Origin: a virus
Lineage: Duplodnaviria; Caudoviricetes
Virus record (IMG/VR): IMGVR_UViG_3300043812_000016
Coordinates: 32,001 to 96,000 of that record
DNA: 64,000 bases
Direction: 5' to 3' (one strand)
Positions 7,338 to 60,935 of this stretch are shown here, in pieces. Position 1 is the first letter of the stretch, and each line of letters starts with the position of its first letter. Below the pieces are notes generated by a model that saw nothing but the letters and a program-made list of their open reading frames with translations, ran no database searches and had not been told where the DNA came from. A program made the position numbers and the translations under genes.

Positions 7338-7395
7338 AGAATTGTTGGTTAAATACATTAATTAAATGTTAGTCAAATGGCCAATCCTTTCTTAT

Positions 7396-7468
7396 CGTGG
7401 AGTGGAGCAGTTGGTAGCTCGCCAGACCCATTATCTGGAGGCCACAGGTTCAAGTCCTGTCTCCGCAA
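7396..7468 (+). tRNA. tRNA-Met(CAT), initiator-like, with atypical anticodon arm
   Basis: Cloverleaf with C1:A72 mismatch; stem CCAGA/TCTGG; loop CC-CAT-TA; T-loop TTCAAGT. Confidence 0.85.
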
Positions 7469-7604
7469 TTGGACTTAGTTACCTTTGGGTGATGATAGCT
7501 AGGTCCTGCCTTCTTATAGTTAGACATTTGTTGAATGGTAGCTTCTTTTGGTTTGTAATTTTTGTTCGGACGTGTAAGTTTAACTGTGTGCAATTAGCAC
7601 ACTT

Positions 7605-7638
7605 GTCTCGATAGTCTAACTGGATAAAACATCGGATT
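7605..7638 (+). pseudogene. 5' half of a split tRNA (Arg-like)
   Basis: GTCTCGA acceptor strand, D arm AACTGGATAA, anticodon stem TCGGA; pairs with 8447-8483. Confidence 0.75.
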
Positions 7639-7649
7639 ATCTATTATAA

Positions 7650-7723
7650 GTGAGTATCGCCTAATTGGATAAGGCACTTGTCTTCTAAACAAGATATTAT
7701 GGGTTCAAATCCCATTACTCACA
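7650..7723 (+). tRNA. tRNA-Arg(TCT)
   Basis: Complete cloverleaf: GTGAGTA/TACTCAC, CTTGT-CTTCTAA-ACAAG, T-loop TTCAAAT. Confidence 0.92.
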
Positions 7724-7741
7724 TCTTCTTAATTATGGAGA

Positions 7742-8449
7742 GTGGTAGTAATTAAATATTTGATAAAAGATGTTAGTGACGATCAATTTATTAAAGCTGT
7801 TAAATCTAGTAAAACCTATACAGAGATTGCTAAAAAGCTTGGTGCTTACTATGCAAGTGCTCCCTCTGTTGTAAAACGTAGAATTGAACAGTTGGGGATT
7901 GATTTTAAACCTGTGTCTCCTAGATATGAACCAGATGACGTATTTTTCTCAGAGCATCATTATCATACTTCCCATACATTAAGAAGTAGATTACTAAAAA
8001 TAAAAGATCGTGAGTATATTTGTTCTGTTTGTGGGCATCTTCCTATATGGAATGGTCAAGCTCTTACATTGGAAGTTGACCATATTAATGGTGACTCATC
8101 AGATTGTAGGTTAGCTAATTTACGCTGGGTTTGTCCCAATTGTCACTCACAAACAAATACTTACAGAAGGGGTAATAGTGGTTCCCCTAGAGAATACTAT
8201 TATCATAGGGTATGTATTGTTTGTGATAAGGAATTTAAGTCTACATCCAGACATGCTAAATATTGCTCTAAGGAGTGTTATAAAAAGGCTTTTACCAAAA
8301 AACCTCCCATAGGTAAGAATGAACTTATCAAAAGATTACGACAGACTTCTTTTGTTCAGGTAGGGAGAGATTTTAACGTTACTGATAATACAGTAAGAAA
8401 ATGGTGTAGAAAGTATAACATTTCTACTAGGTCAAAAGATTATAAATAA
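7742..8449 (+). CDS. HNH homing endonuclease
   Basis: CSVCG...LEVDHINGD..DCRLANLRWVCPNCH, second Zn finger, C-terminal HTH. Confidence 0.9.
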   Translation: MVVIKYLIKDVSDDQFIKAVKSSKTYTEIAKKLGAYYASAPSVVKRRIEQLGIDFKPVSPRYEPDDVFFSEHHYHTSHTLRSRLLKIKDREYICSVCGHLPIWNGQALTLEVDHINGDSSDCRLANLRWVCPNCHSQTNTYRRGNSGSPREYYYHRVCIVCDKEFKSTSRHAKYCSKECYKKAFTKKPPIGKNELIKRLRQTSFVQVGRDFNVTDNTVRKWCRKYNISTRSKDYK

Positions 8450-8483
8450 TCCGAAAATCCGAGTCCGAGTCTCGGTCGGGACA
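8447..8483 (+). pseudogene. 3' half of the split tRNA
   Basis: TAA-TCCGA anticodon stem, T arm CCGAG-TCCGAGT-CTCGG, TCGGGAC-A acceptor strand. Confidence 0.75.
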
Positions 8484-8487
8484 TTGT

Positions 8488-8710
8488 AGCAATTATGTGG
8501 AATAGATAGAATTTCATAAAAACACCTCCTTCCAATAAAATTGGATTTCAAAATAATTTAGTTGTAATACATAAGACAATAGGTTCACCCTATAAAGTTC
8601 CTTTCGTTAATACGGAAGACTAAAGTTAGTAGTCTTCTAAAGATGATTAAGTCTTAAAATTTCTTTATTCGTATCCTCTATCTAAGTAGGTTCGATTCCT
8701 GCAATTGCTA
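8488..8710 (+). ncRNA. tRNA-like-domain RNA with a ~165-nt internal region bearing anti-SD tracts
   Basis: Acceptor AGCAATT/AATTGCT, helix TAGATAGA/TCTATCTA, T arm GTAGG-TTCGATT-CCTGC. Confidence 0.7.
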
Positions 8711-8712
8711 TC

Positions 8713-8800
8713 GGCTAAGAAGTCTTTCTCATTTTATTCTTCTTAGCCTTGTATAATGGTGTTTAGTCATTATTATACTTCTTTTTCTTATTTTCTGTTA
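8713..8800 (+). ncRNA. Two hairpins antisense to the start regions of genes 4081 and 5247
   Basis: 8726-8739 is the exact complement of 4083-4096; 8761-8787 pairs with 5229-5256. Confidence 0.65.
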
Positions 8801-8840
8801 AACATCCTGTGGTATCTCCAGCGCAGGATGTTTTTCTTTT
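8799..8840 (+). terminator. Intrinsic terminator of the tRNA operon
   Basis: AAACATCCTG/CAGGATGTTT stem followed by a T run. Confidence 0.8.
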
Positions 8841-8957
8841 ATTTCTTTATATTAATATTGATACAAGATTGTACAATCTTATTTCTTGTATTGAATTCAA
8901 TATGAGGAGGTTGGAATGTTAGACTAGGATAGCCTAGCCGTAACCTAGTTTCTCCTA

Positions 8958-10250
8958 GTGCTAACTCTAGCAATGGGAAAACATTATTTTAAGAAGTTAG
9001 CTGTTGCAACAGTAGCCTTAGCAACTCTTGGAGCAACGATGTCTCTTTCCTCTGGAACTGTAATGGCGGCCAAGGGGGATCATGGTGTCGATTGGTCGAA
9101 ATATCAAGGATCTAATGGTATCTTTGGTTATCCAGACGATAAGTTCGCTGTTATTCAAATGGGTGGTACTACTACTGGTTGGAATCTTTATGACCAGTGG
9201 ACTTATGGATCACAGGTAAGAAGTGCTATTGCTCAAGGCAAGCGGGCGCATAATTATATCTGGTGGCAAAATGTTACGACTACTCAACAGGCGGATCAAG
9301 TATTAAATTACTTTTTGCCTAAGGTACAAACACCGAGAGGCTCAATTATCGCTCTGGACGTTGAGTCAGGCTATCAGAGTACTCAAGCTATTGACCATGC
9401 TTGTCAACGAATTAAAGACGCAGGTTATACGCCAATGGTTTATGGTTATAAGAATTACCTTGTAAATAATACTGATCTTCATTATTTAGCAAGTAAGTAT
9501 CAACTCTGGTTGGCGGAATACCCTAATTATTCAGTAACTAGAGAACCTAATTATAATTTCTTCCCTAGCTTTGAAAATATTGGTATGTTCCAATATACGT
9601 CAACAGCGATTGCTGGTGGTCTTGATCGGAACATTGACCTCACTGGTATTACTGATAATGGTTATACTAATGGTAATGCTCAAAAGCCTAAGACAGAAAC
9701 TCCAGCAACGGAACAAGGTAAGCAACTTCATCAAGATACCCATAATTATGTGGTTAAGTCCGGTGATAGCTGGTGGAAGATTGCTAATGATCACGGAATG
9801 GATATGTACGCCTTAGCTAAGCTTAATGGAAGTACTATTAATTCTGTAATCTACCCCGGACAAGTTCTTCGGGTAGCTGATAAAGGCGAAGGTAATTCTG
9901 TTTCTAACAAGGTGCAAAAACCAGTACCAAGTACTAATACTCAACAAACTTCAACCTATACTGTTCGTTACGGGGACAGTTGGTGGAAGATTGCTAATGA
10001 TCATGGTATGAGTATGTATACTCTTGCACAAATTAATGGTAAGAGTATTTACAATACTATTTACCCCGGTCAAGTATTAAAGATTAGTGGAAACGCTCAA
10101 GTACAACAACGTAAGTCATATACTGTTCGTTATGGCGATAACCTTTCAACAATTGCTTATCGCCTAGGTACTTCTGTAAATCATTTAGTAGCTACTAATG
10201 GTTTAAGAAATGCTAATCTAATTTATCCCGGACAGGTCTTGAGTTACTAA
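8958..10250 (+). CDS. Endolysin: signal peptide, GH25 muramidase and 3 LysM domains
   Basis: GVDWSKYQG, IALDVE, WLAEYP, FQYTS; three LysM repeats; start uncertain. Confidence 0.92.
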   Translation: MLTLAMGKHYFKKLAVATVALATLGATMSLSSGTVMAAKGDHGVDWSKYQGSNGIFGYPDDKFAVIQMGGTTTGWNLYDQWTYGSQVRSAIAQGKRAHNYIWWQNVTTTQQADQVLNYFLPKVQTPRGSIIALDVESGYQSTQAIDHACQRIKDAGYTPMVYGYKNYLVNNTDLHYLASKYQLWLAEYPNYSVTREPNYNFFPSFENIGMFQYTSTAIAGGLDRNIDLTGITDNGYTNGNAQKPKTETPATEQGKQLHQDTHNYVVKSGDSWWKIANDHGMDMYALAKLNGSTINSVIYPGQVLRVADKGEGNSVSNKVQKPVPSTNTQQTSTYTVRYGDSWWKIANDHGMSMYTLAQINGKSIYNTIYPGQVLKISGNAQVQQRKSYTVRYGDNLSTIAYRLGTSVNHLVATNGLRNANLIYPGQVLSY

Positions 10251-10309
10251 AAAGAAGTCTAGCTAATTAGCTAGGCTTTTTATATTACACTTAAAAGGAG
10301 TGAGTGTAA

Positions 10310-10950
10310 TTGAACTACTTAAATATTTTGGATTCTATTAGTGATCGTTCTAAGGTGTATTTTTTACCCGTAGACTCTACGGGTATAGTAAGCTATGAAA
10401 ATGCCTTTTTAACGTTTCATATTACTGATTTAGAAGGAAATAAAGTCACTACGGTTACAGGTAATTATGATAGTAATGGCATCTACTTTGATCCTATTAA
10501 TCTGATTGGTCTATCTGCCGGTAAAGTATATGGACTATATTTAGAAATTAGAACACGTACAGAACGTAATTATTTTCCGGGGCAAGAAGTTCTTTATCTG
10601 ATTCTGACTACAGATGCAAAATTATCTATCTTAAAAGATATTCCGACTGATTACTTTAAGAATTTAGACAGCGGTAATAGTAAGATGCCTTTTAATTCTG
10701 TACAGGTAGATTACTTTAGATGAAGACAAACAGGCTTATTCCAGAATTATTAATAATACTTTGATTATTGGTATTCCTAAAGGTAAGACAGGGCCGGTTG
10801 GCCCTAAAGGAGATACTGGTGACCTCAAGGGCCTATAGGTGCTAGAGGTTTAGACGGTACTAATGGTAGAGATGGGACTAGTTATATCCCTTACATTGGT
10901 TCGGATGGGAATTGGCACGTTAAAGAAACGGATCAAGGTGAGTTGAGTTA
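10310..10950 (+). CDS. Tail-fibre adaptor/collagen protein (frameshifted)
   Basis: N-terminus paralogous to 13555; Gly-X-Y repeats after 10780 in shifted frames. Confidence 0.6.
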
Positions 10951-13362
10951 ATGGAAAAAGATATTAATTTAAATAGTCAAAGCTCAAGGACCTGTAGGTC
11001 CAATGGGTCCTCAAGGTGAACGTGGTCCACAAGGACCAGTTGGCCCTAAAGGAGATAAAGGTGATACTGGAGCTAAAGGTAGTGATGGTGCTAATGGTGC
11101 AAAAGGGGATACTGGTGCTAGAGGTATAAGTATCTGGGCTTCTAAATATGCTCGTGGTGCTAAATTGAATGACCAGTATTGGTCTGATTTGAATGGTACA
11201 AAGGTTGGCTTTGGTCCACAGGTTGGTGATTTAGTTTTACAGACTGATGGAAATGTTTCTATAGTTACAAAGTCAGTAACTTCTTCTGATATTTATACTG
11301 GTGGTGGTTTATGGTCTATAGATGGTTATTTATTTAATATCCGTGGTCCACAGGGTTCTGTAGGTCTTACTGGACCAATGGGACCCGCCGGTCCTAAGGG
11401 AGAAACTGGTGCTACAGGAGCAACGGGCGCTAAAGGTAGTACGGGAGACAGAGGACCTCAAGGAATACAAGGACCTCAAGGAATAGACAAAGGAGACTAA
11501 AGGTGATCAAGGAGATAAAGGAGATACTGGACCACAAGGGCCTAAAGGGGATAAAGGTGATACGGGACCTAAAGGTAATGATGGATTTACCCCACAGATT
11601 GATAGTAATGGTCATTGGAAGATAGGCAATACAACTACTCAATATTCAGTAGGTATGAGGGATCAAGATGACTCAGCTACTCTATTAGATCTTAATACAG
11701 ATAGAGCTGTTTATTATCCGTCTGAAAAAGTAGTTTTCTATGCTACTAGCGTTTCTGGTCATGGTCATTTAGTAGTTAAGTATTATCATTTAAATAATTT
11801 AGTTGCTACTAAGGAAATCTATTATGGAACTTCTGAGCTTAGCTGGTCTTGGCTTTTGCCTGCTGACGATAATATTGGTTATGCTGTAGTAATTGAAAAT
11901 CATGTTGGTAATAATGTATCAACAGAGACAATTGCAATTAATGTAAGTAGCGATCTCTATAATTATCCTATTATGGGATTTATTTCTAGGTATGATAATG
12001 ATTCTCCAACAGAAATAAAAGGGGTTTTAGACTACTTAAAGCGACTTCATATCAATTTAATTCAGTGTTATGATTGGTTTGATTATCACTCTTTGCCATT
12101 ACCTACTTATAGTAATGGTGGTGATAGTTTATTTGTTGCTAATATTTGGAATGATATGGGTAATCGTTTAACTAAAAAGAAAGTTATTGAAGATTACTGT
12201 TATTTAGCTAAAAGCTATGGAATGAAACCTTTAGCTTATATGGCGATGAATGGATCTGATACTAATCAGCTAGTTCACGGATTATCCGCTGATATGTTTT
12301 TATATAATGATAATTCAAAAAGCCTTGACCATGTTTATAAAACTTTAGATAAATCTAATGGCTGGGGTAAATATAATCTTTATAATATGAATTGGATGAA
12401 TGGTCCTTGGCAGGATTATATTTATCGTCAAATGGAAACCGTTAGAAATAATATGCCATTTGTTGGTTGGCATATTGATATGTTTGGTGACCCCGGTAAT
12501 AAGTATGAGGCCAATGGTAATCTAATTAGTAGCGCTACTCTTGCTAATGGTATCCATTATTTCCTAAATAAAGCTGGTAAATTAGGTTGGGATACTGGTG
12601 TTAATTCTGTTGGTGAATACGGACTTGATGATATTAGAAATTCAACAGTTCCTAAATATCTTTATACCGAAGTATGGGATAATCGTAAGACTTATAATGA
12701 CTTGTTTAATCTGGTTAAATTTCTTGCTGAATCACGGGATAGTAACAAGCAAAAGAAAGGTGTAATTATAGCCGCTTATATGGATTATGATTACGCTAAA
12801 AATAATGCTGGTAAGTATTTTAATACGGACGGAATCATTCTAGCTGACTTAGTGATTATGGCTAGTGGTGGTACTCATTTGGAAATAGGGTGAGCATATG
12901 CTCTGTAATGAGTATTTCCCTAATAGTAATCTTAATCTCCCCTCAACGCTTAAAGATAATTATTTACCTAAGATGTATGACTTTTTTGTTGCTTTTAAAG
13001 AAATTATTGGCCTAGGCTATCAAGTTGACGGTTTAGCTACTATTGATGGTGGTAGTGTAGATTATTTACAAAGCGGTAAAGTTTGCGGGATTAGCCGAGG
13101 AAATAAGAATGATTATTTAGGTTTAAGTTTAATTAATCTTAGAACTACTAATACAGAGTGGCGAGATACAAATGCTAATTGTAGTGTTTCTCCAGCACAA
13201 AATATTAGGGTAACGCTCAAGCTAGGTGTAACTAATCATGACTGGTACTATTTTGACTTAGATAATTTAGAGCCTCAAAAATTAAATGTAGGGGCAGACG
13301 GAGTAGTTAATATTTCTTCACTAAGATATTATGGATTTATTTTAGGTATTCCTAAAAAATAG
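10951..13362 (+). CDS. Collagen-repeat fibre with a GH66 dextranase-like domain (frameshifts near 10975, 11490, 12890)
   Basis: Gly-X-Y repeats, then [59 protein letters not shown]. Confidence 0.8.
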
Positions 13363-13365
13363 TTA

Positions 13366-13482
13366 TTGATAATTTATTTAATTATGATATACTTAAATTA
13401 AATATTTAAGTAATGTAATTTGCCACTATACTAATATCTTGTTTACAGCCTTTTCTGCTAGTATGTAGGAAAGGTTTTTTAT
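13366..13482 (+). ncRNA. Promoter-sRNA-terminator unit A
   Basis: TTGATA-N16-TATACT, ~50 nt without ORF, terminator 13447-13482. Confidence 0.5.
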
Positions 13483-13554
13483 TTTACGTTGGTTTAATCC
13501 CCTATATTACAATTAGCGAAACCATGTGATAAGAAAGGGGAATGCAAGGGTCTA

Positions 13555-15732
13555 ATGAATAAATTAAGTTTTATTTCAAGCATTCCTAGTGATAATGATA
13601 CAACAATTTATTTAGTGCCTACTAATTCTCAAAAGAGCTTACAGTTCTTTAACGTGGAATTAAATATGCACTTTTATGATCTTAGTGGTAATAGTCGTTT
13701 AACTATTCCGGTAAATGCTAACGATGATGGTGTTTACTTTAAACTAAGCCAGTTATCTTCATTAGGACTAGGAACATATGCTTTTTATCTTAGTATGCGT
13801 TATTCAGACCATATGGAGTATTATCCTAGTAATACAGCGAAGTATATTACTTTGGCTTATAATAACAACAGATTAGTCTTTAAGAGTATCTTTACTCCCG
13901 AAGCTACTAATATTACTCCTCCCGATACGAGTAAGATTGTTGAACGCCAAGTTTTGCACGTCCATGATATTGATATTAAAGATATTAAGGTATCGACAAT
14001 TGACTCTAATAAAAACGCTAATGTTTATCTAGATCAGTATGATGTTTTACATTTTGATATTCCTAAGGGTGAGACTGGTAAGTCTCTATATGAATTAGCA
14101 CGGGACGCTGGTTTTACTGGTAGTTTTAAAGACTATGAAAAAACTTTAGTTGGTCCTACTGGTCCTAAAGGTGATCGTGGTTATAATATCTGGTTCGATA
14201 CCCATGATTATGGTGAAAACTACCGTGGCTCTTATTGGACTGACTTAAAGGGATCTGCTCCCGATCGTGGACCACAGGTTAGCGACTTAGTGGTTTTAAG
14301 TAGTGGTCATTTAGTTCAAGTAACTGGTGTTAGTTACGGTGGTGTTCCCGAAGCTGGTGGAGGTACCTTTAATTATGGTCCTTACTTAGCTAACTTAGCT
14401 GGTGTAGCTGGACCAAAAGGTGATCGTGGTGCTACTGGTTTACAAGGTCCTCAAGGTAATACTGGACCTACTGGTCCACAGGGTCCTGTAGGTCCTGCTG
14501 GTAAGAACTTTAATATTAAAAAGACTTTTGATTCTGTATCTGCAATGAATGCAAGTAATGGCGCTGGATTTACTGACGGTGACTTTACAATGATTGCAAG
14601 TAATGTTAGTGATCCTGATAATTCAAAGCTTTATGTTTGGGACGGAAGTAAGTTTGTTTATATTTCTGACCTTTCTGGTGCCCAAGGTATTCAAGGACCA
14701 CAAGGGATTCAAGGTATTCAGGGGGTTCAAGGTAAGCAAGGTTTAACTGGACCTCAAGGACCAAAGGGGGATAAAGGTGATACCGGGGCTACTGGACTCC
14801 AAGGACCCAAGGGGGATAAGGGTGAAACCGGACCACAAGGTCCTCAGGGTGTAAAAGGTGATACAGGTGACACTGGTACTGTTGATAATGCCGGATTGAC
14901 CACAGCGCCCGCTTTTGTTAAGCTTCAAACGCAGGTCAATAATAGTGCTGTGGGTACTAACCTATTAATGGGCACACGTGATTGGCAAGGGGACTGGAAA
15001 AATCTCCCATCATGGATGGTGAGTGAAGAGACGTACAAAGGTCTTACTGTTCGGTACTATTCACACGCATGGGATGGCCTAATGCAATATTATGACGCAG
15101 ATCCTAACACTACGTATACTTTTAGCTTCTATGCCAAAGCATCCGAAGCAGATAACAGCATGACTATATTTGTGCTTGATTCAGATGATTGGAGCAGTCC
15201 AGTCGTTAGCAGACCAGACTATGTTGGTCAAACTATAACAACAGAATGGCAACGATATTCAGTCACCTTTACTACTAAGAGTGGTGGGAAGATTTCCCCA
15301 AATGTCTGCTCTAATAAAGATGGTGTGACAATTTATGCGGCTGGTTACAAACTTGAAAAAGGTAGCGTAGCTACTGACTGGATGCCAGCGCCAGAGGATA
15401 GGGGTGATCGGGGTCTAAGTATCTGGTTTGATAAGTATGCTTATGGCGGTAATAGACCTAACCAATACTGGTCTGATCTTTACAATACTAAAGTTGGTTT
15501 TGGTCCACAGGTCGGCGACTTGATTATCCAAACTAATGGTATGATTACCCAAGTAACTGCTGTTAATGCTAGTGGAGATGCTTCTACTGGTGGTGGTACT
15601 TTTGATACGGGTGCTGTTATTGGTAATATGCAAGGTCATACCCCTGTTCGTGGTACTGATTACTGGACTGACGCAGATAAAAATGAAATTAAGTCTTATG
15701 TAGATGACGCAATTTTAAATGGAAAGTGGTGA
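13555..15732 (+). CDS. Tail fibre/receptor-binding protein with collagen repeats and a carbohydrate-binding module
   Basis: GPQG repeats, GTNLL...YTFSFYAKA...EWQRYSVTF...KLEKGSVATDW. Confidence 0.85.
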   Translation: MNKLSFISSIPSDNDTTIYLVPTNSQKSLQFFNVELNMHFYDLSGNSRLTIPVNANDDGVYFKLSQLSSLGLGTYAFYLSMRYSDHMEYYPSNTAKYITLAYNNNRLVFKSIFTPEATNITPPDTSKIVERQVLHVHDIDIKDIKVSTIDSNKNANVYLDQYDVLHFDIPKGETGKSLYELARDAGFTGSFKDYEKTLVGPTGPKGDRGYNIWFDTHDYGENYRGSYWTDLKGSAPDRGPQVSDLVVLSSGHLVQVTGVSYGGVPEAGGGTFNYGPYLANLAGVAGPKGDRGATGLQGPQGNTGPTGPQGPVGPAGKNFNIKKTFDSVSAMNASNGAGFTDGDFTMIASNVSDPDNSKLYVWDGSKFVYISDLSGAQGIQGPQGIQGIQGVQGKQGLTGPQGPKGDKGDTGATGLQGPKGDKGETGPQGPQGVKGDTGDTGTVDNAGLTTAPAFVKLQTQVNNSAVGTNLLMGTRDWQGDWKNLPSWMVSEETYKGLTVRYYSHAWDGLMQYYDADPNTTYTFSFYAKASEADNSMTIFVLDSDDWSSPVVSRPDYVGQTITTEWQRYSVTFTTKSGGKISPNVCSNKDGVTIYAAGYKLEKGSVATDWMPAPEDRGDRGLSIWFDKYAYGGNRPNQYWSDLYNTKVGFGPQVGDLIIQTNGMITQVTAVNASGDASTGGGTFDTGAVIGNMQGHTPVRGTDYWTDADKNEIKSYVDDAILNGKW

Positions 15733-15790
15733 GTAGATGAGTTTGAATGATATTTTAACGGTTCTACTCTAATAGATTGGAGGTGATAGC

Positions 15791-16672
15791 ATGACAGTTA
15801 AGGATACTTTTACTTCAATGGCCGATCATCTACGTAGTGAATATGGTATTAATGATTTATTAACGACTAATCAGATTAAGGACGGTTTTAACGGGTTACA
15901 CGTTACTAACCTAATAGATGATGGCCAGTCCTATGATTCAACAGTTGATAAGGTTGGTTGGAAACCTATAACGGGATTTCAGAAGTATGCTAATTTGATT
16001 CCAGGCAAATATATTTCAGTTTCATGTGATATTGAATGGTCTGGATATGATCCTAGTAAGGGTGAGCGCATTGGTATTGAATATGGAATAAAGTTTAAGA
16101 ATAGTCCTGAATTTTGGCTAGAGGTATTTTGTTACCCTAAAACTTCTAATGGTTCTAATCACATAGTTGGTGGTGGACTATTACCACAGGACATTATTAC
16201 AGGCTATGATGAAGGTAATTTTTACTCAATTGACTCGGGTGTATGCAAGATTACTAACCCCAAGATTTTTATAAATCCAATGGGGGGGAAAAGCAGTCTG
16301 AACTTGCTTAACCCATCCTTGTTTATGTTAGATCATAGTAAAATGCAGGGAACATTGATTACTTTTGATACCACAGGTCCTACTGATAGCTTAGGTCTTA
16401 TCCGTCAGAATCATATCTATCCTAATAAAGGTAGTTCTTATAAATTATCCTTTGAAGCTATTGGTAGTGGGAATATAATGACATATGTATTTGGTGGTAC
16501 AGTTGATAAGGGTTATCAAAGCAATGGTCATTTGATTACCTTAACAAATAGCTGGGATTATTATGAGCAATTAATCCCTGCTGATAATATGCCATTAAAT
16601 GCAAATTTTAATTTTAGTGCAATTACTAATTGTAAGGGTAAGGTAGCTGATCTTAAATTGATAGAAGTTTGA
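15791..16672 (+). CDS. Fibre-associated protein with tandem carbohydrate-binding-like domains
   Basis: RBS GGAGGTG; two NLL/NLI-initiated beta-rich domains. Confidence 0.6.
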   Translation: MTVKDTFTSMADHLRSEYGINDLLTTNQIKDGFNGLHVTNLIDDGQSYDSTVDKVGWKPITGFQKYANLIPGKYISVSCDIEWSGYDPSKGERIGIEYGIKFKNSPEFWLEVFCYPKTSNGSNHIVGGGLLPQDIITGYDEGNFYSIDSGVCKITNPKIFINPMGGKSSLNLLNPSLFMLDHSKMQGTLITFDTTGPTDSLGLIRQNHIYPNKGSSYKLSFEAIGSGNIMTYVFGGTVDKGYQSNGHLITLTNSWDYYEQLIPADNMPLNANFNFSAITNCKGKVADLKLIEV

Positions 16673-16698
16673 ATTTAACTAAGCTAAAATTAAAAGGC

Positions 16699-16851
16699 TT
16701 ACTAAGATCAGCGACTTGTGATATAATAAGTTGTAAGAGTGGTAGTAACTCTACGGAGCCTACTGCGAGGGGTAAGTACAAGTCCCTATAAAGTACATTA
16801 AGACTAGTCTAAGTCCTACTCATGCTATTTGTGAGTTAGGGCTTTTCTTTT
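16699..16851 (+). ncRNA. Promoter-sRNA-terminator unit B with two tandem H-type pseudoknots
   Basis: TGaTATAAT at 16719-16727; pairings given in findings; terminator 16811-16851. Confidence 0.55.
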
Positions 16852-16914
16852 ACAATTTTGTATTCTTTTCTTTGTATAGTGTTAATTCCCTATATTACAG
16901 TACAGGTGATAAGA

Positions 16915-17181
16915 ATGACTTATGATGATGTTCTTATTAAACGTAAGAAGTTATTTAAGCATATGGATCGTAAGAGAGTGTTTAAACGTAAATCACATAA
17001 TACCGAAACTCGTTATTGTGCTGTTTGTGGTCGTCCTCTTACATCCTATGTATTTAAGACAGGGGAGTTTGTTACCTCGGTTAAGCATATTCATTACTAT
17101 GTAAATGGAACTTTTCTTTCTGGTTCTGTTTGCTATAGCCCACACAGTTGTTATCGGTATTTAAGAAAGGAAGTGAAATAA
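16915..17181 (+). CDS. Zn-finger hypothetical protein of the packaging module
   Basis: CAVCG motif, AGGTG RBS, TATATTA upstream. Confidence 0.65.
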   Translation: MTYDDVLIKRKKLFKHMDRKRVFKRKSHNTETRYCAVCGRPLTSYVFKTGEFVTSVKHIHYYVNGTFLSGSVCYSPHSCYRYLRKEVK

Positions 17182-17182
17182 C

Positions 17183-17605
17183 TTGTCTGGTTTAACAGAT
17201 TCAATTCGTCAAATGATTTCAGCAGGGGAGACTGCTGATAAAGAACAAGCAACCGATAATATTAAACAAACAATTGAATTAGTTTCTAAGAAGCTTTTAG
17301 ATCAGGCAATGAGTGGAACTTCTGAACTTGACGTTAAAGACTTAAAGGACTTAGCTTCTGTTTATACTTTATTACAGCAAACTTCTGCTGGCGATGATAC
17401 GCAAACAGGTGCTCCACAAGCTCCTGCTGGTATGAGTGATATTTTTAATGACTCTATCCCTGTTTATAAAGATCCACAGGACGAGAATAAGAAACGGGTA
17501 GATCAAGATGATTTAATTGATTTATCGTCTAAGGATATTGATAAAATGGTATCAGATCAGTTCAAGGAACAAAATGATCTCAATTATAAAGCTAATGAAG
17601 CTTAA
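17183..17605 (+). CDS. Putative terminase small subunit
   Basis: Size, position and LDVKDLKDLASVY segment resemble the Twort-like gene upstream of terL. Confidence 0.45.
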   Translation: MSGLTDSIRQMISAGETADKEQATDNIKQTIELVSKKLLDQAMSGTSELDVKDLKDLASVYTLLQQTSAGDDTQTGAPQAPAGMSDIFNDSIPVYKDPQDENKKRVDQDDLIDLSSKDIDKMVSDQFKEQNDLNYKANEA

Positions 17606-17608
17606 TTA

Positions 17609-17708
17609 TTGACTTATTAAATAATTATGCTATTATAATTTATAAGTCGGTCAAACTTATGTATGGTGTTTTTTATTTTGAGGTAGCTACTGCAGTAGCT
17701 ACCTTTTG
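17609..17708 (+). ncRNA. Promoter-sRNA-terminator unit C
   Basis: TTGACT-N16-TATTAT; perfect AGGTAGCTACT/AGTAGCTACCT hairpin with T run. Confidence 0.5.
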
Positions 17709-17836
17709 TTATATAAGCAGTATATAAAGGATTAAAATTAGAAGTAGGAGATTTAGCTACCCCTCTATAAAATTTTTAATTAATCAGAAAAACCACTTAA
17801 ACTAAGAATAAATCTTAGATTAGGTGGTTATTTTAG

Positions 17837-18547
17837 TTGATTAAGTTGTATAATAATGATTGTTTAAAAATTTTACCGACTTTACCAGACCATAGTGTAG
17901 ATATGGTTTTATCTGACCTTCCGTTCGGATCAACTAGGAATCAGTGGGATTCTATTATTCCAATGGATCAGCTTTGGGAGCAGTATAAACGCTTATTAAA
18001 AGTAGGTGGAGTAGTTGCTTTGTTTGGTGACGAACCTTTTTCATCTAGTTTAAGGCTATCTAATCCTAAATGGTATCGTTATGATTGGTATTGGATTAAA
18101 AATAGAGGTTCTGGTTTTCTTAATGCTAAGAAAATGCCCTTAAAAGCGGTTGAGACTATTTCCATTTTTTATCCTAAGCTCCCTCTTTATAATCCACAAA
18201 TGGTTGAGGGAAAGCATTATAAAGCTAAGAATGATACTAAAAGTAATAATTGGGGTTCTTATAAGACTGGCTGGGTTACTGATAATAAAGGTACCCGTTA
18301 TCCAGTTAATGCTATCCATTTTAATAAGTTAGCAAAGACAATTCACCCTACTCAAAAACCAGTTGATCTCTTAGAGTATTTAATTAAGACCTACACTAAT
18401 GAGGGTATGACAGTACTGGACAACACTATGGGTTCTGGGTCTACTGGAGTTGCTTGTAAGAACCTAAATCGTAATTTTATCGGAATTGAAAAAGATCCAG
18501 ATTATTTTAAATTAGCGAAGGAGCGATTAGATGGGAACGTGGATTAA
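17837..18547 (+). CDS. DNA methyltransferase, N4-C/N6-A family
   Basis: DLPF catalytic-type motif, HPTQKP, VLDNTMGSGSTG. Confidence 0.9.
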   Translation: MIKLYNNDCLKILPTLPDHSVDMVLSDLPFGSTRNQWDSIIPMDQLWEQYKRLLKVGGVVALFGDEPFSSSLRLSNPKWYRYDWYWIKNRGSGFLNAKKMPLKAVETISIFYPKLPLYNPQMVEGKHYKAKNDTKSNNWGSYKTGWVTDNKGTRYPVNAIHFNKLAKTIHPTQKPVDLLEYLIKTYTNEGMTVLDNTMGSGSTGVACKNLNRNFIGIEKDPDYFKLAKERLDGNVD

Positions 18548-18737
18548 ATGCTTACTTTTTATCCTATTAATTTTAGTTATTATTGTTACTCTTTTTGCTA
18601 TTGTTGGTTATAGTGTATTATTTTTAATTTCACTTTTTCATATTACTGTTGATTTTAGCTTTTTAAATGCTGTGTTTGCTGGTGGAGCAACCTGTGTTTG
18701 TTTTAGCTTAATTGGGGGTATCTGGGGTGAAAAATAA
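18531..18737 (+). CDS. Small membrane protein
   Basis: Two hydrophobic helices, AAGGAG RBS. Confidence 0.6.
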   Translation: MGTWIKCLLFILLILVIIVTLFAIVGYSVLFLISLFHITVDFSFLNAVFAGGATCVCFSLIGGIWGEK

Positions 18738-19107
18738 ATTAAAGAGCGGGCTAGTTTATATTATTTTTGCAATTTTTGTTAGCTTAGTATCTTCTGGTTT
18801 TGTCTATTTAGTTTCTTTTATTCCTTTTTTAGGTCCTATTCCTAATTATTCTTATTTATTTTGGCTTTCATTTTTATATCTTATAGAGGTTGAGATTATT
18901 AAGAAATTATTTAATTTACATACCAATTTAGTATTAATAATTTTATTTATCCTTGTATATGGGGCTGGTTTTGCTTATTTAGGACTACCAGCTAATAATT
19001 GGTTAGCTCTTTTCATGTTATTCTTATCTATTTTAACAGCTTCTATTGTACAGTTAGGTTATCGTTATTTTAAGCGGGGTGCGAATGGTAAAACAAAAGA
19101 TAATTAA
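18727..19107 (+). CDS. Membrane protein
   Basis: About four hydrophobic segments. Confidence 0.6.
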   Translation: MKNKLKSGLVYIIFAIFVSLVSSGFVYLVSFIPFLGPIPNYSYLFWLSFLYLIEVEIIKKLFNLHTNLVLIILFILVYGAGFAYLGLPANNWLALFMLFLSILTASIVQLGYRYFKRGANGKTKDN

Positions 19108-19963: not shown

Positions 19964-20103
19964 CATCATCTATTAAAATGATTAATATAACAAGTATAGA
20001 TTTCATTAACGTTATCAATGGAGTCTCCTTTCTTTTAATAATTATTGTTTAGAAAAGCCTACAGTATTATCAATCTCTAATGGACTGTGGGCTTTTCTTT
20101 TTG
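19960..20103 (+). ncRNA. Promoter-sRNA-terminator unit D with anti-SD tract
   Basis: TTGACA-N17-TAATAT; TTTCAT and CTCCTTTC (20025-20032); terminator 20051-20103. Confidence 0.6.
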
Positions 20104-20153
20104 TCTTTTTTAGCTTATAATTGTATTAAATTATTGTGAAAAGAGTTTGGCTA

Positions 20154-20414: not shown

Positions 20415-20416
20415 TT

Positions 20417-38558: not shown

Positions 38559-38613
38559 TGTTTTAAATTCAACCTATATTAAAGAGGATAAATAGAAAGT
38601 AGGTGAAATTATA

Positions 38614-48007: not shown

Positions 48008-51000
48008 GTGAGCAAGCAAGAAGATACAAATATTAAGGTTACGGCTGATGTTGACCCCGCCAAAGCGAGTCTTCGAGAAATTGAGGATCTAGTTAGTTCT
48101 ACCCAACAGAAGATTAATCGGGTATTTAGTACTGTACAAGATAATAACGGTCAGATTAGTAATAAGCAGTTAGCTGGGGTTCAAAATGGCTTTGGTCGTT
48201 TAGACGAAGTTAAATCCGCTTTAGATAATGCTCTTAACCAAGCTAAGGCAACTCAAAATGGTTCTAAGCTAGAAGAAAGCATTAATACTTTAGCTCCTAA
48301 GTTAGATCTAGTTGTTAGTAGTTTAAGAGAGTTAAGATCTGGTAATAATAGTACTAAGCTTGATTCTATCTTTAATGCTCGTACAACTACTTCTCGTGCT
48401 TTTAGAGATGATAGTGCTACTATTCGTGGTGAACAGGGAGACTTTAGTCAACAAAATTTACATTATGAGAGTTTAGCTAGAGAAAGCCGATCTGATATTC
48501 ATAATTTAGCTAGTTCGCTTAAACGTGAAATGGGTAACTTAGACGTTGGTAGGAAGTCTGGTTATATTTCATATAATCGTTATCACCAGTACAAAGCCTC
48601 GTCTCAGTCTATTCAAAGCCGTTTGCAAGAACAACGAGATCGGTTTAATTCTCCTACTGGTGATATTGCTCGTTTTGCTAGTTATTATCAAAATTTACAA
48701 ACTCAAGGCAAAAGAAGCTAATAATGTTGCTTCTGCACCGGGTGCAACTACTGAGCAGGTTCGTTATGCTAGAGCTTTAGACGAACAAGTTAAGCACCTA
48801 GAAAAGGTTAATGAGCGATTTAAGAAGCAGGAAGAAGAATTACGAACTGCCGAAAAGAATTCAGAGTCGTTTAATGATCGCCTTAATGATACTCAAGGGA
48901 GTAACTATTGGCGATGATCCTAATTCTTTTATGGGTCAGCTTAATAAGCGTAAATATACTATTTTACGTGGTGCTATCTGCCTCGGAGGCGCTTCTATTG
49001 CTAGTGCTTATGCTCAAGGAAATAGTTTAAGACTTTCTAGTTTTGACGATATTAAGTCTACTGCATATGCTAATGGCGGTAGAGATGGTGAAGTTCTTAA
49101 TACCTTAGGCGACTATGGTTATAAATATGGTTATAATGGCGCAGAAATGGGTCAGTTTGCCAATGCTTATACTTCTACTACTGGTAATGTGGGGAGTACT
49201 AGAGATGTTGCTGGTGTTGCTCAGACGTGGGCTAGACAATCTCGTATCACAGGAGCTAATGCACAGAGTACTTTAGGGCTAGAACAGACTGTCGGTAATA
49301 GTGCTAATTTAAATTCTAGTCAGATGAGTAGTGTTGGTAATGCAATTACTAATTCTATTATTAATTCTGGTATGAGTGCTAAGGCAACTGAACAGCAACA
49401 AGGATTATCTATGTTAATCCAGAATGCAAGTAATCAGGGTCTTACTGCTCGTGATGAAAAGAACTTAGCGGGCTTCCAAGGTGCGATTGCTAGTGGCGGG
49501 GCACAATTCCAAGGTACACAAGGCGCTCAAAATACTATGCAGTTAGCTCAAGGATTAGGTAATGTTAATAACCCAATGATGAGACAGCTTTTTGCTCAGT
49601 CTAATCCTAGTCGCTATACAGGGGTAGAGGGTTCTGCTAATATGGTTTTTGATATGCAAGAGTTCCAGAAGAAACCATGGAAGATGAAAGGAATTCTCCA
49701 AAATGCTGAAAAAGATTTTGGTAGTCGCAAGGTTGCTTCCGCTAATCTATATCAGGCGACTGGTGTTCCGGCAGAGACTATTGAAAAGTGGATTCAATTA
49801 GCAGATTCTGGTAAGTTAGACAAGAAGCATATAGATAAGCTAGAAAAATCATCTAGTGCAAGTAAAGAAGGCGGGAAAGCAGATCAGGATTATGATAAGA
49901 CGGGAGCTTCACAACTTCAAAAGTATAATTCTGCATTAGCTGATTCTGCTATGAAAGCTAGTCAAGCTTTAGACGGTTTACGTGGTATTATTGCTAAGGC
50001 TTATAAGGCTGGTGGTGGGTTATCTCCATTTGTTTCTGGTGTCGCTAGTGCATTTGGTGCTGGTGCTGGAAATCTTATGAGTATCTATGCTCTTGATAGG
50101 CTAAGAGGTAAAGGTGGTTCTGGAGGTGCTGGAGGGTCTGGTATCTTAGGGCGTATCTTTAAAGGTGGTAAATCACCTGTAGAAAAGGAAGCTGAAAAAG
50201 CAACTGCTAAAGCTGGAGAAGAAGCTGTTAAAATTGGTGCTAAATCAGTTTCCCGTTCTGGTATCAAAGCTACTGCTTCTGGTATTCTAAAGTCTAGTAA
50301 ATTAAGAGGTTTAGTTCGTGGTGCTAAGGCTGGACTACCGGGTGTTGGTGATTTAGTCTTTGGCGGTTTAGACTTAGCCACCTCTGTTGCAACTACTAAG
50401 AAAGGTACTAAAGCTCGTAGAAAGGCTGTTGGTTCTAGCTTAGGCTCATCTGCTGGTAGTGTTGCTGGTGGGGTTGTTGGTGGACTGATAGGTTCAATTT
50501 TCCCCGGTGCTGGTACTGCGGTTGGTGCAGTTGCTGGTAGTGTAGCTGGTGGCTGGTTAGGTGATAAGTTTGGTGGTTTCCTTGGTGGTAAGATAGGTAA
50601 GTCTAAGGATAAAGCTATTAATAAAGCTAAAGGACAATCACTTAGAGACGCTCGTAAGACTGCAAGTAAGTATAATAAGTCTGGTGGCGTACTAAGAGGT
50701 ATTCTAAAGAATGGTAAGCGATTCTTACCGGGGGTTGCTCTTGGTATTGCAGGCTTAGGCTTAATGGACGATTTCTTTGGAGGTAAAGCTAAAGCTTCCT
50801 CAAAGAAGGGCAGTGAGAAATCAGAAGCATGGCGTATTTTGCGTGGCTATGATAAAATGCTTGATCATGCTATGCGAGTAGTTCAATCTGCTAAGTCTAT
50901 TAAGAACGGTGGAGATTCTAGTTCTAAGAGTGACGACTCAGATATATCTGGTACTTCCGGTGAGGGAGAAAAGGCTATTCGGAGCGTTGCAAAAGCTATT

Positions 51001-51750
51001 GGTAAGAAGCTTGGTGTTGATCCTAAACTAGTTTATGCACAATTGATGCACGAAACTAATGGCGGTACTCATATGGCTGGTAAAAACAACTATGGTGGTA
51101 TTGTTTATGCTGGTCAGAAAGGTGCTAAAGCTGGGTCTCATCAGCCAGACGGTAGTGGTAATTATGCAGACTTTGATAGCCTAGACGACTTTGCTAATGC
51201 TTATGCTTCTACTCTTCAGAAGATGGGTATTAATAGTAGTATTAAGTCTGTTAATGACTGGGCTAATCAGCTTCATAGTAAGGGTTACTTTACTGATTCT
51301 CCTGCTAATTATGCTGGGGGAATGGAAAGATTTGCTAAGCAGTATGCTGTTGGTGGTATTCGTCAATACGCTTCTGGTAGTCCTTTAATCACAGATCATC
51401 CAACTACTAATAATGGTAGTGATGTTTATGGTGAGGCTGGGACAGAAGCTTATGTACCATTAAATGCTGGTCATTACTTTAGTGGGCTTTCTACTTTAGA
51501 CGACTTAGCTGGTATCTTTGGTAAAAAGGTAGTTAATCCGGGAGTTTCTGAGTCAGGTGGAAAATCAACTACTATTAATCCAAGTTATAATATTAACCTT
51601 ACGATTAATGGTGGTACTGATGATCCAGATACATTAGCCCAAACAGTGGCTAATAAAGTAAGAGAAATGCTAAGTCAATATGATAGTCAGCAAGCAATGA
51701 GTAACCAGCAAACATTCTTTGCTAATGAAACTTCTGGACTTCTAGTCTAA
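48008..51750 (+). CDS. Tape-measure-like protein 2 with C-terminal GH73 glucosaminidase-like domain (frameshifts near 48710 and 48895)
   Basis: Gly-rich region; AQLMHETNGG, NNYGGI, YADFDSL, KGYFTDSPANY. Confidence 0.8.
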
Positions 51751-51830
51751 ATGAAGTTATAATTTAGTTGAACATTTGTTAATACACACCCAAAAATCCT
51801 CTATGTTTCAGACGTACATAGGGGATTTTG
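51735..51830 (+). ncRNA. Promoter-sRNA-terminator unit F
   Basis: TGGACT-N17-TATAAT; core GAACATTTGTTAATACACACCC; hairpin 51793-51830. Confidence 0.45.
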
Positions 51831-51855
51831 ATTTATATTAAAACTAAATAAAGGG

Positions 51856-58245: not shown

Positions 58246-58247
58246 TT

Positions 58248-58781
58248 ATGTATGCACTTTATAATACAAAGACTGGTAATTATGTAAAATCAATTGGTAC
58301 TTCTGCTTTTGATAATGCGAAGATTTATTCTGAAACGGCTATGCTGGCTGAAGTTCCTTTTCTTAGTAAAGATCTTTATACAGCAGACCAGTTAAAGAAT
58401 TTTAACACCCTAGCTAATATGGCTGATAACACTTTAGGTAATAAGGCTGTATCAATTGAAGATTCACTTAATTGGGGGTTAAATAAGGTAAGTTCTCTGC
58501 TTTATTCTACTACCCGTGATATTTATAATAAGGATCTTATTAAAGGTGAAGATTTGGGGTCATTAACAGACACTTTTATTTCAATGATGTCTAGCTATCT
58601 TGATTTTGACGTTAATGCTTATCTAAAGGATAAAGCTACTTATTTAGCTACTTTTAATGGACCAATTAATGATGAATTGGCTAAGAAAGCACAAGAAGCT
58701 CAGAATGCTAAGAAACAAGCACAGGCTGAGAATGATCAGAAGCAAGCTGAGATTGACGCAAAGAATAAAGTAAAGGATTAA
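58248..58781 (+). CDS. Hypothetical protein (paralog of 58798)
   Basis: MYALYN...YT...DFD shared pattern. Confidence 0.7.
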   Translation: MYALYNTKTGNYVKSIGTSAFDNAKIYSETAMLAEVPFLSKDLYTADQLKNFNTLANMADNTLGNKAVSIEDSLNWGLNKVSSLLYSTTRDIYNKDLIKGEDLGSLTDTFISMMSSYLDFDVNAYLKDKATYLATFNGPINDELAKKAQEAQNAKKQAQAENDQKQAEIDAKNKVKD

Positions 58782-58797
58782 GGTAGGGTGTTAAACT

Positions 58798-59247
58798 ATG
58801 AAATATGCTCTTTATAACAATAAGGAAAATAAGTTTGTTAAGCTTTTAGCTACTCGAATGCTAAGTCATGAAACTATTTATGAATTAACATCTGATGTGG
58901 AAGAAGTTAAAGAATTGACTGATAAGCCATATACAGAAGCAGAACTACATCATTTTGAAGAAGTAGCTGGAGTAGAAAAAGGGTCTTTTGAAAATTACAA
59001 ATTAAGTATGCAAGATGAGGAGGCTTATACGGTATATAATGCAGGAGACAAAGCTTTGCAATCTATCCATGATTATTTGTGTATGTTAGATCCTCGTAAT
59101 GTAGATGGTATTGCCGATTTTGTAGATCGGATTCAGTTGGCTATTTATAATGTGACTGACTTTGATATGGAAGAATATTTTGAAGATAAAGATTATTATT
59201 TAGATGATTTAAGAGGGGAGAATGACTGGGACAATGAAGATGATTAG
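58798..59247 (+). CDS. Hypothetical protein (paralog of 58248)
   Basis: MKYALYN...YT...DFD. Confidence 0.7.
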   Translation: MKYALYNNKENKFVKLLATRMLSHETIYELTSDVEEVKELTDKPYTEAELHHFEEVAGVEKGSFENYKLSMQDEEAYTVYNAGDKALQSIHDYLCMLDPRNVDGIADFVDRIQLAIYNVTDFDMEEYFEDKDYYLDDLRGENDWDNEDD

Positions 59248-59581
59248 CCTAGTAGTTGGGTTATTATGTATTATTCTTATCCTATCTGTTGCTTATCTTA
59301 TTAAGAGAGTAAATAAGCTAATTGACTATGTTTTAGGTAAAGATGATTCACTTATCAATCTTAGTGTTCCTGATACGTCATATATTGAATTACCAGACTA
59401 TCTTTTCGTGCTATCAGTTTTTAGTAAACCTATTAATGACCGTATAATTATTGGGGTCTATAGCAGTAGTGATAAGGCAAAAGAACGACTTAACTATTAT
59501 AAAAAGTCATTTAGACATCCTGAAAATTATACAGATTATCGAATTGACCCTATTCCTAATAATTTAGAGGAGGATAAGTAG
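59234..59581 (+). CDS. Membrane-anchored hypothetical protein
   Basis: N-terminal hydrophobic helix. Confidence 0.6.
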   Translation: MKMISLVVGLLCIILILSVAYLIKRVNKLIDYVLGKDDSLINLSVPDTSYIELPDYLFVLSVFSKPINDRIIIGVYSSSDKAKERLNYYKKSFRHPENYTDYRIDPIPNNLEEDK

Positions 59582-60102
59582 TGGAATATTTATTTGCTAT
59601 CTTTTTGGGTGGGGTAATGTTTGGTGTAGGCTTATCTGGACTAGTTAAGTTTATTTTAGTTATATTTAATAATAAGAAAGGAAACTCTAAACCTAAGTCT
59701 GTTACTTATGATGATAAAACTCTTATTAAGAAGTCATATCCTCTTGTTAGTACTCATTATACCGCACAGGAGATCAAGGATAGAGTTCATGACAATCGAG
59801 ATCAGCATAGACAAGACGTTGTGGACGTTTTCTTTAGTCAATTAAACTTTGCAATTAGTCATGACTATTTAGGATCATCTTATGTAATAAATGTTGACTT
59901 ATACGAGAGAGCCAGTCTTCCTGATGTTTTCATTTCTTCTAAGGACTTAGAATTTTTGAGATTATATTTATCTATTTATTATGGATTTGATACAAAGATC
60001 GAAAAACAAAGTGGCTATCACGATGTTGATTATTTATTTTTAATAGTATCTTGGGAAGATCCTAAAGTACCCTTGATTGTTTTTAATAAAGGAGAAGATT
60101 AA
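59581..60102 (+). CDS. Membrane-anchored hypothetical protein
   Basis: N-terminal hydrophobic helix, GAGGAGG RBS. Confidence 0.65.
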   Translation: MEYLFAIFLGGVMFGVGLSGLVKFILVIFNNKKGNSKPKSVTYDDKTLIKKSYPLVSTHYTAQEIKDRVHDNRDQHRQDVVDVFFSQLNFAISHDYLGSSYVINVDLYERASLPDVFISSKDLEFLRLYLSIYYGFDTKIEKQSGYHDVDYLFLIVSWEDPKVPLIVFNKGED

Positions 60103-60629
60103 TGGTTATTAATGACTACAGTTTGATTATTGGTATCATTATTGGTATTTCTATTACTGTTATTATAGGCTTGATTGCTATAAATCGAGAACCTAAGGTT
60201 GAGTTGGAACCTCAAAAGGTTAAATTACCTGAGAAACAATCTTCTGATGATATAGCTTCAATAAAAAATGAGATAAGTAAGCTGTGGAACGCTCTTTCAG
60301 ATATTGGTCAAAAAAGCGAAAAGTTCTTTGATAGCTATAGTGATAGATTAGTAAGTGTTGAACAGCATATAGGTACTGATTTAAAGAACGATGATCCTCG
60401 TAGACATCTGCGTGTTAATGGGTTTAATCGTCCAGTTGTTTTTGTTGTTAATTATACATATAATGACGGATATGGCCCTTTTAATTGTTCTGATGCTTTT
60501 GCTTATAAAGAAGACGCTTATGCTTTTGTTAGAAAGTTAAAAGAATCCTTAGGTAGTGTAAAAGATATATCAATTAGTCCTATGATTGTTTATCTTGATA
60601 AGGATAAAACACTAGATAATGTGGATTAA
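60102..60629 (+). CDS. Membrane-anchored hypothetical protein
   Basis: N-terminal hydrophobic helix, AAGGAG RBS. Confidence 0.65.
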   Translation: MVINDYSLIIGIIIGISITVIIGLIAINREPKVELEPQKVKLPEKQSSDDIASIKNEISKLWNALSDIGQKSEKFFDSYSDRLVSVEQHIGTDLKNDDPRRHLRVNGFNRPVVFVVNYTYNDGYGPFNCSDAFAYKEDAYAFVRKLKESLGSVKDISISPMIVYLDKDKTLDNVD

Positions 60630-60642
60630 TCTTTAGCAAAGG

Positions 60643-60768
60643 TTGACAACCATGGGTGTATGCTTTATACTAATAATGTTCCTTAATTCAGTAAGGAAAT
60701 TGTTTCAAACTTTTATCTGAATTCTTTGTTTGTTTTTCTTTGGCAGGGTTTGTCCCTGTTTTTTTTTA
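60643..60768 (+). ncRNA. Promoter-sRNA-terminator unit G
   Basis: TTGACA-N17-TATACT; 60719-60734 complementary to 5713-5728; terminator 60742-60767. Confidence 0.65.
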
Positions 60769-60777
60769 TCTTAGCTA

Positions 60778-60935
60778 TTGTATTTTAATTAAAGTGTGAT
60801 ATACTATAATCATGGTTATGTTAATGAATTATTTAGTTTGACTGGCAGAGACTCGATAATTGTTATACATTACCTTCTTTATTAAGATTAGTCGATTAAA
60901 AGAGTGCTTATCCTGTTGGGTAGGCGCTCTTTTTA
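60778..60935 (+). ncRNA. Promoter-sRNA-terminator unit H
   Basis: TTGTAT-N16-TATACT; core CATTACCTTCTTT; terminator 60899-60935. Confidence 0.55.

Follow-up and report, generated by a model that had tools for sequence, protein, structure and literature searches.

Candidate short non-coding transcription units at module boundaries in the late-gene region of a Herelleviridae-like phage

The DNA analysed here (the window) comprises 64,000 nucleotides (nt), bases 32001–96000 of the 143,482-bp IMG/VR virus record IMGVR_UViG_3300043812_000016. An earlier reading of its letters, hereafter the original prediction, proposed eight intergenic units (here A through H) in which a sigma-A-type promoter leads into a terminator-like hairpin with no open reading frame (ORF) in between. 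We find that six of these (A, C, D, E, G, and H) consist of a near-consensus promoter for the host sigma-A followed by a strong intrinsic terminator, with no ORF led by a Shine-Dalgarno (SD) sequence. The explanation that we favour, with confidence somewhat better than even, is that the units are separate and unrelated short transcription units, a mixed set located at module boundaries. Because their leaders are exchangeable and the units mark mosaic junctions, they would form neither one family nor a coordinated anti-SD system.

The promoters of A, C, and E match the −35 consensus at five to six of six positions and combine a 16-nt spacer with a TG-extended −10 element, those of D and G join a perfect −35 to a good −10 across a 17-nt spacer, and those of H and B have a weak −35 and depend on a TG-extended −10 (Table 1). 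The unit promoters match the early-gene promoters of the same phage in quality, and the terminator hairpins (−13 to −23 kcal/mol) are followed by T-runs. No plus-strand SD-led ORF of at least five codons lies inside any of units A–H, consistent with the description of the units as ORF-less; the sole plus-strand frame that was hit has 8 codons and begins within the terminator tail of E. The count of eight sigma-A-type units is reduced to the six named above plus B, which is plausible through its extended −10. Unit F falls below the score cut-off of the promoter scan and, since it has a TATAAT box without a −35, is best read as probably just the terminator of the upstream 979-amino-acid (aa) gene (48811–51750). 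An 11-mer common to F and the promoter before 60997 was considered as a promoter class and rejected, since it occurs merely three times, once within a ribosome-binding site. A late-gene motif, which the original prediction placed directly after several units, is indeed found 3′ of A, B, and E, and of these only (at 13501, 16889, and 38573); it resembles the late −10 box of kayviruses (PMC7698491). Pairwise similarity between units is limited to regulatory motifs of 13–18 nt, with no common scaffold.

This layout is not due to chance. Strong intergenic promoters number 32, against 6.3 ± 2.8 in shuffled sequences (a fivefold enrichment), and promoter-then-terminator pairs, counted strictly, number 3 against 0.00 across 60 shuffles. 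A generic consensus scan of 7000–26000 showed no overall promoter excess (75 against 78.7 expected), and F does fit the notion of chance promoter- and terminator-like strings in AT-rich intergenic DNA. As an account of the whole set this notion is hardly credible, given the enrichment of high-scoring promoters, the absence of pairs from shuffles, and the conservation of promoter and terminator in relatives while the flanks diverge. In a genome-wide scan, equally strong promoters of the early arm mostly precede a gene with SD and ATG ~30–100 nt downstream, whereas those of the late-gene region run into terminators instead. The existence of short ORF-less transcription units is very probable, and about seven promoter-to-terminator units devoid of protein coding probably make short early RNAs. 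A further unit of this kind lies beyond the window at 89010–89110 (G000:C1:121010), with a perfect −35 and a hairpin of −19 kcal/mol.

Judged by its proteins, the genome is that of a Herelleviridae-like myophage of Lactobacillaceae. Its closest named relative is Lactobacillus phage LfeInf, at ~49% amino-acid identity for one virion protein, and a nucleotide search against GenBank phages returned zero matches. Four relatives were compared with the window's own genome (G000) as full genomes: G002 (~93% nucleotide identity across 80% of the genome), G001 (86% across 83%), the distant G003, and the very distant G004. Further fragments of relatives, given L numbers (L005 is G001), were taken from IMG/VR and metagenomes; a metagenome scan with the terminator pattern of D yielded 16 matches, comprising 2 new D homologues and otherwise unrelated terminators. 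Promoter-then-terminator units are present in G003 and G004 too, at other positions. G001 and G002 keep A, D, and E; the layout scan also scored G in G002 and C in G001, and alignment places both G and H in each of the two genomes.

Comparison of close relatives shows which parts of a unit persist. In A, terminator and late motif show no variation, but L004 and L006 have lost the −10 and leader, the distance from −10 to hairpin shrinks from 54 nt to 17 nt in G002, and a 260-nt mobile RNA element sits within the promoter spacer in L002. Promoter and terminator of D are kept in all seven variants, while its leader varies in sequence and length and is deleted in L058. Unit B, the fold of which is no stabler than shuffles (z = −0.38), is kept in L003 and L005 and has unrelated sequence in its place in L002, L004, and L006, with the mosaic junction falling within the terminator. 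Unit C is wholly absent from L002 and L004 and present in other near-identical relatives. It is followed by the 3′ remnant (17716–17778, the last ~20 codons) of a gene deleted in the window, and in G001 (L005:6033–6612) a 193-aa gene of unknown function lies between the C hairpin and this remnant. The leader of E is conserved in 7 close relatives, and the similarity of E to its relatives starts at the −35, upstream of which is a mosaic junction.

We propose that host RNA polymerase with sigma-A would start at an early-type promoter just 3′ of a late-gene stop codon and that the transcript would run for 10–90 nt before its release at the strong intrinsic terminator, giving non-coding RNAs of ~45–130 nt. 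The same terminator would also end the upstream operon and shield the next late gene, three such genes having their own late promoter just downstream. Selection, as the variants of A and D suggest, would preserve the terminator, and for D also the promoter, while the leader could be freely deleted or replaced, and the units would occupy mosaic junctions that gain and lose genes, homing-type nucleases, and a small mobile RNA element. In kayviruses, late transcription largely ignores the terminator that stops early transcription (PMC7698491). The production of the RNAs, its timing, and any action in trans are predictions from the DNA, and several points weigh against or limit the proposal as a whole. 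The RNA data consist of assembled contigs (two RNA runs, one doubtful run, and one DNA run), which are blind to ends, strands, and levels, and contigs of the RNA runs span A and D without a break, which in itself speaks neither for nor against the units. The presumed early timing is read from promoter type alone. A strong promoter firing into a terminator brings no obvious benefit if the RNA is functionless, and both the modest excess in leaders of tracts matching the tail of the 16S ribosomal RNA and the complementarity of G to nuclease genes (see below) hint at more function than mere punctuation.

A comparable arrangement occurs in phage lambda, where the strong constitutive promoter PR′ produces the short 6S RNA, terminated at tR′, directly before the late genes. 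The units share with it a strong promoter that would give a short terminated RNA before late genes; unlike in lambda, no Q-like factor or binding site was identified, and the late genes have late-type promoters 3′ of the terminator. The order of promoter, terminator, and gene in A, B, C, D, and E could likewise be that of an attenuator, in which the promoter serves the downstream gene and the leader terminator is read through, either partly or by means of a phage antitermination factor, such that low or conditional early expression would be added to expression from the late promoter, as at lambda PR′-tR′. The C hairpin of G001 is suggestive in this regard, as it directly precedes the 193-aa gene, whose SD is located in a second, predicted hairpin, and kayvirus units with both early and late promoters are known (PMC7698491). 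Attenuation is nonetheless unlikely: the terminators, whose stems and T-runs are both long, are strong, the genes that follow encode virion or packaging functions and possess late promoters of their own, G and H stand in tandem before a gene that has yet another promoter, and no antiterminator gene or binding site was identified.

The original prediction saw in the units a dispersed repertoire of trans-acting small RNAs (sRNAs) that would mask the SDs and start codons of phage and host mRNAs, including those for defence. The strings on which it was based, which read on the reverse strand as ribosome-binding site plus start codon, are all found as described, with ORFs of 4–25 codons. The claim that several cores carry an anti-SD does not survive inspection: D alone matches the 16S 3′ tail over 7 nt or more, the matches in E and F do not exceed 5-mers, and no anti-SD tract of at least 6 nt is present in the cores of A, B, C, E, F, or G, two of which (A and C) had been correctly noted to lack a clear one. 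The 5-nt 'anti-SD' of E is mutated in 3 of 7 close relatives. Almost every intergenic anti-SD string in these genomes is accounted for by a real SD on the opposite strand, of which it is the complement.

Pairing was assessed for each element against 162 phage start regions (−25..+40), the same regions reversed, and coding interiors, using ungapped and seed-and-extend scoring in place of duplex-energy ranking, which was unstable on long windows. Units A–H show no excess over the reversed controls, contrary to the enrichment at start regions that the antisense claim entails. At a score of at least 24, for instance, D pairs with 21 start regions and 24 reversed ones, G with 30 and 32, and H with 20 and 16; the slight excess of D and G over coding interiors is compositional. 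Genome-wide best matches and seed-and-extend energies of the units are no better than those of shuffles. A coordinated antisense layer is not supported, as the units fail this enrichment test, their leaders are deleted or absent in close relatives, they share no scaffold, and only D has a clear tract. The repertoire as first conceived is decidedly unlikely, even though some elements do display the expected feature: besides D, the G001 and G002 copies of H match the 16S tail over 9 nt (the window copy differs by one mismatch), and one of the units of the distant G003 has a mimic of 7 nt. Across five genomes, 16S-tail tracts of at least 7 nt occur in 3–4 of ~16 unit families against 1.6% of 60-nt control segments, a post hoc comparison. 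The 3′ tail of the tRNA operon, described below, also mirrors the consensus start region.

Unit D comes closest to the proposed design. Its fold is stable (z = −4.8), and its CU-rich tract (20025–20036), which is predicted to be single-stranded and contains the 9-nt match to the 16S 3′ tail (20025–20033), lies between the 5′ hairpin and the terminator, an arrangement kept in 6 of 7 variants. Stem pairing is maintained across the seven variants via one-sided G-U changes, and RNAalifold detected no double compensatory changes among them. D may plausibly be a riboregulator acting through its 16S-tail-like CU tract. Alternatively, the reverse-strand SD and start strings could be real translation starts of small minus-strand proteins, in which case D could form a type I toxin-antitoxin-like pair whose antitoxin is the plus-strand RNA. 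The SDs are strong and correctly spaced, and the hydrophobic frame opposite D is open in 4 of 7 variants (L056, L059, and L074 were judged by eye). L057 and L070, however, have lost this frame but not the CU tract, and the region is deleted in L058; those codons of the frame that are conserved fall on the −35 and −10 boxes of the plus strand, the search for a minus-strand promoter gave nothing convincing, and a bidirectional terminator lies upstream. A second candidate, the 25-codon frame opposite the tract at 8515, is not conserved, because its ATG is missing in G001 and G002, both of which keep the tract, and the remaining reverse frames have 4–10 codons. We therefore regard minus-strand proteins as very improbable.

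Unit G presents a different case. Its U-rich tract is complementary to codons 2–15 of the next gene downstream (60997) and of its paralogues, and the reverse complement of the tract encodes the N-terminal motif of the nuclease family to which these genes belong, indicating that the tract is an inverted homologous fragment of a nuclease 5′ end. The family, with CapR, treble-clef zinc-finger, and DUF2726 domains, has matches at ~10 places in the genome; the genes are conserved at the DNA level at their 5′ ends, and their presence varies among close relatives. The best pairings of G are with the starts of the paralogues 65095, 33386, 60997, and 63339, and starts of this family are the top pairings in G000, G001, and G002 alike. 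The match score of G is no higher than that of shuffles of U-rich sequence, so that the case for G rests on the identity of its targets and its adjacency to one of them. It is plausible that G is a riboregulator against the 5′ coding ends of this multi-copy CapR/zinc-ribbon/DUF2726 nuclease family, with an action that could be exerted in trans or, on read-through transcripts, in cis. The adjacent unit H is conserved in G001 and G002 and has a stable predicted fold (z = −4.8). It was compared with the Rfam family Atu_C9, an assignment not accepted at 26.6 bits against a threshold of 40; in the Rfam search over the units no unit reached its gathering threshold, and only two tRNAs passed.

The only element enriched for start-region pairing lies outside the eight units, in the 3′ tail of the tRNA operon. 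Positions 8755–8796 are the complement of the stereotyped SD, spacer, ATG, and second codon of this phage, and the CU-rich tract within them (8778–8796), which lies between hairpins and a strong terminator, is predicted to be single-stranded; the fold as a whole is markedly stable (z = −10.5). At a score of at least 28, the segment 8745–8800 pairs with 23 start regions, against 9 reversed regions and 1 coding interior, and its best target, gene 5247, is paired from −21 to +10 at −34.8 kcal/mol. A comparison of all start regions with sense-strand intergenic DNA likewise revealed an excess of inverted matches (e.g., 20 against 7 at a score of at least 38 in G000), and most of the top matches fall on the tail in G000, G001, and G002. 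The tail is plausibly a riboregulator directed at the stereotyped start region of many phage genes; equally, it may be an inverted relic of a gene start. The 5′ leader of tRNA-Met (7346–7394), with a CU-rich tract of its own, is conserved in G001 and G002 and has a reverse ORF of 4 codons, and it shows no enrichment for the 162 start regions.

These observations allow for a more restricted form of start-site masking, which we consider doubtful, in which a subset of the ORF-less RNAs (the tail, G, D, and H) are true maskers with leaders that serve as exchangeable seeds. The tail would then act as a 'pan-start-region' antisense RNA that switches off the many phage genes sharing one stereotyped ribosome-binding cassette. 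An inverted 5′ fragment of a selfish nuclease gene would have been domesticated in G into an antisense RNA that restrains this multi-copy family, and the role of D and H would be to present mimics of the 16S tail. Fast-evolving seeds would then be carried on a scaffold made up of the conserved promoter and terminator.

Among sRNAs of known type, RsaE/RoxS and the LhrC family exemplify those of Firmicutes that base-pair through C/U-rich seeds and occlude the SD. D and the tRNA-operon tail resemble them in combining a hairpin, a single-stranded CU-rich tract, and an intrinsic terminator; unlike them, the tract mimics the 16S tail and not a UCCC loop, and neither element shows homology to them, both being Rfam-negative. 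UCCC motifs are mentioned in PMC12282133. Closer to the present genome, Staphylococcus phage K expresses seven intergenic small non-coding RNAs, snc001–007, of unknown function (PMC9241854), and other non-coding regions of Herelleviridae have been described (PMC10383478, PMC12282133), a Listeria relative having abundant ones (PMC12282133). As with the units, the phage K RNAs belong to a Herelleviridae or Herelleviridae-like genome, are intergenic and scattered, have partly host-type promoters, and have targets that are only predicted. They differ in that they share no sequence similarity with the units and were seen by RNA-seq, whereas the units are known from sequence. By eye, snc007 resembles an unannotated small ORF with a strong SD, which the units lack, and snc006, read for the same layout, is ambiguous.

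The PeSL cassettes of T4-like phages, which consist of a strong early promoter and a stem-loop terminator and mediate modular shuffling (PMC2839356, PMC4122927), offer another parallel. The units also combine a host-type early promoter with an effective stem-loop in intergenic DNA, and they too sit at junctions of gene gain, loss, or replacement between close relatives. PeSLs, however, are repeated, ~100 bp long, and mutually similar, as opposed to units that share only 13–18-nt motifs. In a PeSL the stem-loop lies upstream of or within the promoter and the cassette ends in the SD and start of the next gene, whereas in the units the hairpin comes 10–90 nt after the start site, and what follows it is a late promoter or another unit rather than an immediate SD. 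Outside the window, at G000:C1:1262–8912, ~12 near-identical early cassettes precede small genes, each with a consensus promoter, a fixed leader, and a stereotyped SD and ATG; a second class occurs five times. It is these early cassettes that represent the genuine PeSL-like repeats of the phage, and its stereotyped start region derives from them.

Provided that the RNAs are made, they constitute a clearly bounded group of candidate small RNAs from an uncultured Lactobacillus-type phage, belonging to a family in which such RNAs have been observed and still lack an explanation. Three hypotheses follow for individual elements: one would be antisense to a selfish nuclease family, one would mimic the 16S tail, and one would be antisense to a shared start-region cassette. 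The main value of the analysis is at present negative: little is left of the striking 'anti-SD repertoire' once composition-matched controls are applied and close relatives are compared.

Table 1. Positions of the units and associated features in the window.
Feature	Positions	Strand	Composition
tRNA-Met 5′ leader	7346–7394	+	CU-rich tract 7384–7391
16S-tail match, 9 nt	8515–8533	+	within tRNA-like element 8488–8710
tRNA-operon 3′ tail	8711–8842	+	two hairpins, CU-rich tract 8778–8796, terminator 8800–8833
Unit A	13366–13483	+	sigma-A promoter 13366–13393, AT-rich leader, terminator 13447–13476 and T-run
Late-promoter motif after A	13499–13511	+	downstream of A terminator
Unit B	16699–16855	+	extended −10 16719–16727, weak −35, predicted RNA ~110 nt, terminator 16811–16844
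Late motif after B	16887–16899	+	downstream of B terminator
Unit C	17609–17712	+	promoter 17609–17636, terminator hairpin 17680–17705
Minus-strand frame in D	19952–20033	−	SD and TTG (start 20018), 22-codon hydrophobic ORF overlapping D promoter
Unit D	19960–20108	+	promoter 19960–19988, 5′ hairpin ~19998–20026, terminator 20051–20098 and T-run
Unit E	38425–38560	+	promoter 38425–38452, 70-nt leader, terminator 38528–38553 and T-run
Late motif after E	38571–38581	+	downstream of E terminator
Unit F	51757–51832	+	TATAAT 51757–51762, no −35; hairpin 51793–51829, weak T-run
Unit G	60643–60768	+	promoter 60643–60671, 5′ hairpin 60679–60698, U-rich tract 60700–60745, terminator 60742–60759 and T9
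Unit H	60778–60936	+	extended −10 promoter 60778–60805, predicted 90-nt structured RNA, terminator 60898–60933
Free-standing nuclease genes	22417, 23943, 28548, 33368, 60997, 63126; beyond the window 65095, 99033		

Several further features accompany the tRNA operon. The element at 8488–8710 is tRNA-like, with a 7-bp acceptor-type stem, a canonical T arm, and a long internal insert; neither ARAGORN (with intron search) nor Rfam calls a tRNA there. A cassette of ~810 nt (7605–8483), which contains a second tRNA-Arg(TCT) (7650–7723) and an HNH endonuclease gene (7742–8449), interrupts the resident tRNA-Arg(TCT) precisely at its anticodon loop. G001 and G002 have this tRNA without the interruption, and two runs (one of DNA, one probably of DNA) yielded contigs that join across the insert.

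A structured, ORF-less RNA of ~300 nt with its own promoter and terminator is predicted at 20549–20890. A second promoter-driven copy is found at G000:C1 ~21630 (minus strand) and a third at L002:1750–2010, inside the promoter of unit A; this insertion in a relative indicates that the element is mobile. In one pig-gut RNA run, contig depth over this element is far above that of the flanking bins. Outside the window, G000:C1:6337–7489 is a stretch of 1.15 kb that has no ORF and carries several consensus promoters on both strands. A split gene region (21154–26848) harbours two matches to group I introns, at 21500–21703 (E = 9e-6) and 21905–22116 (E = 4e-8), both under the Rfam gathering score, which lie between short exon-like ORFs and nuclease ORFs.

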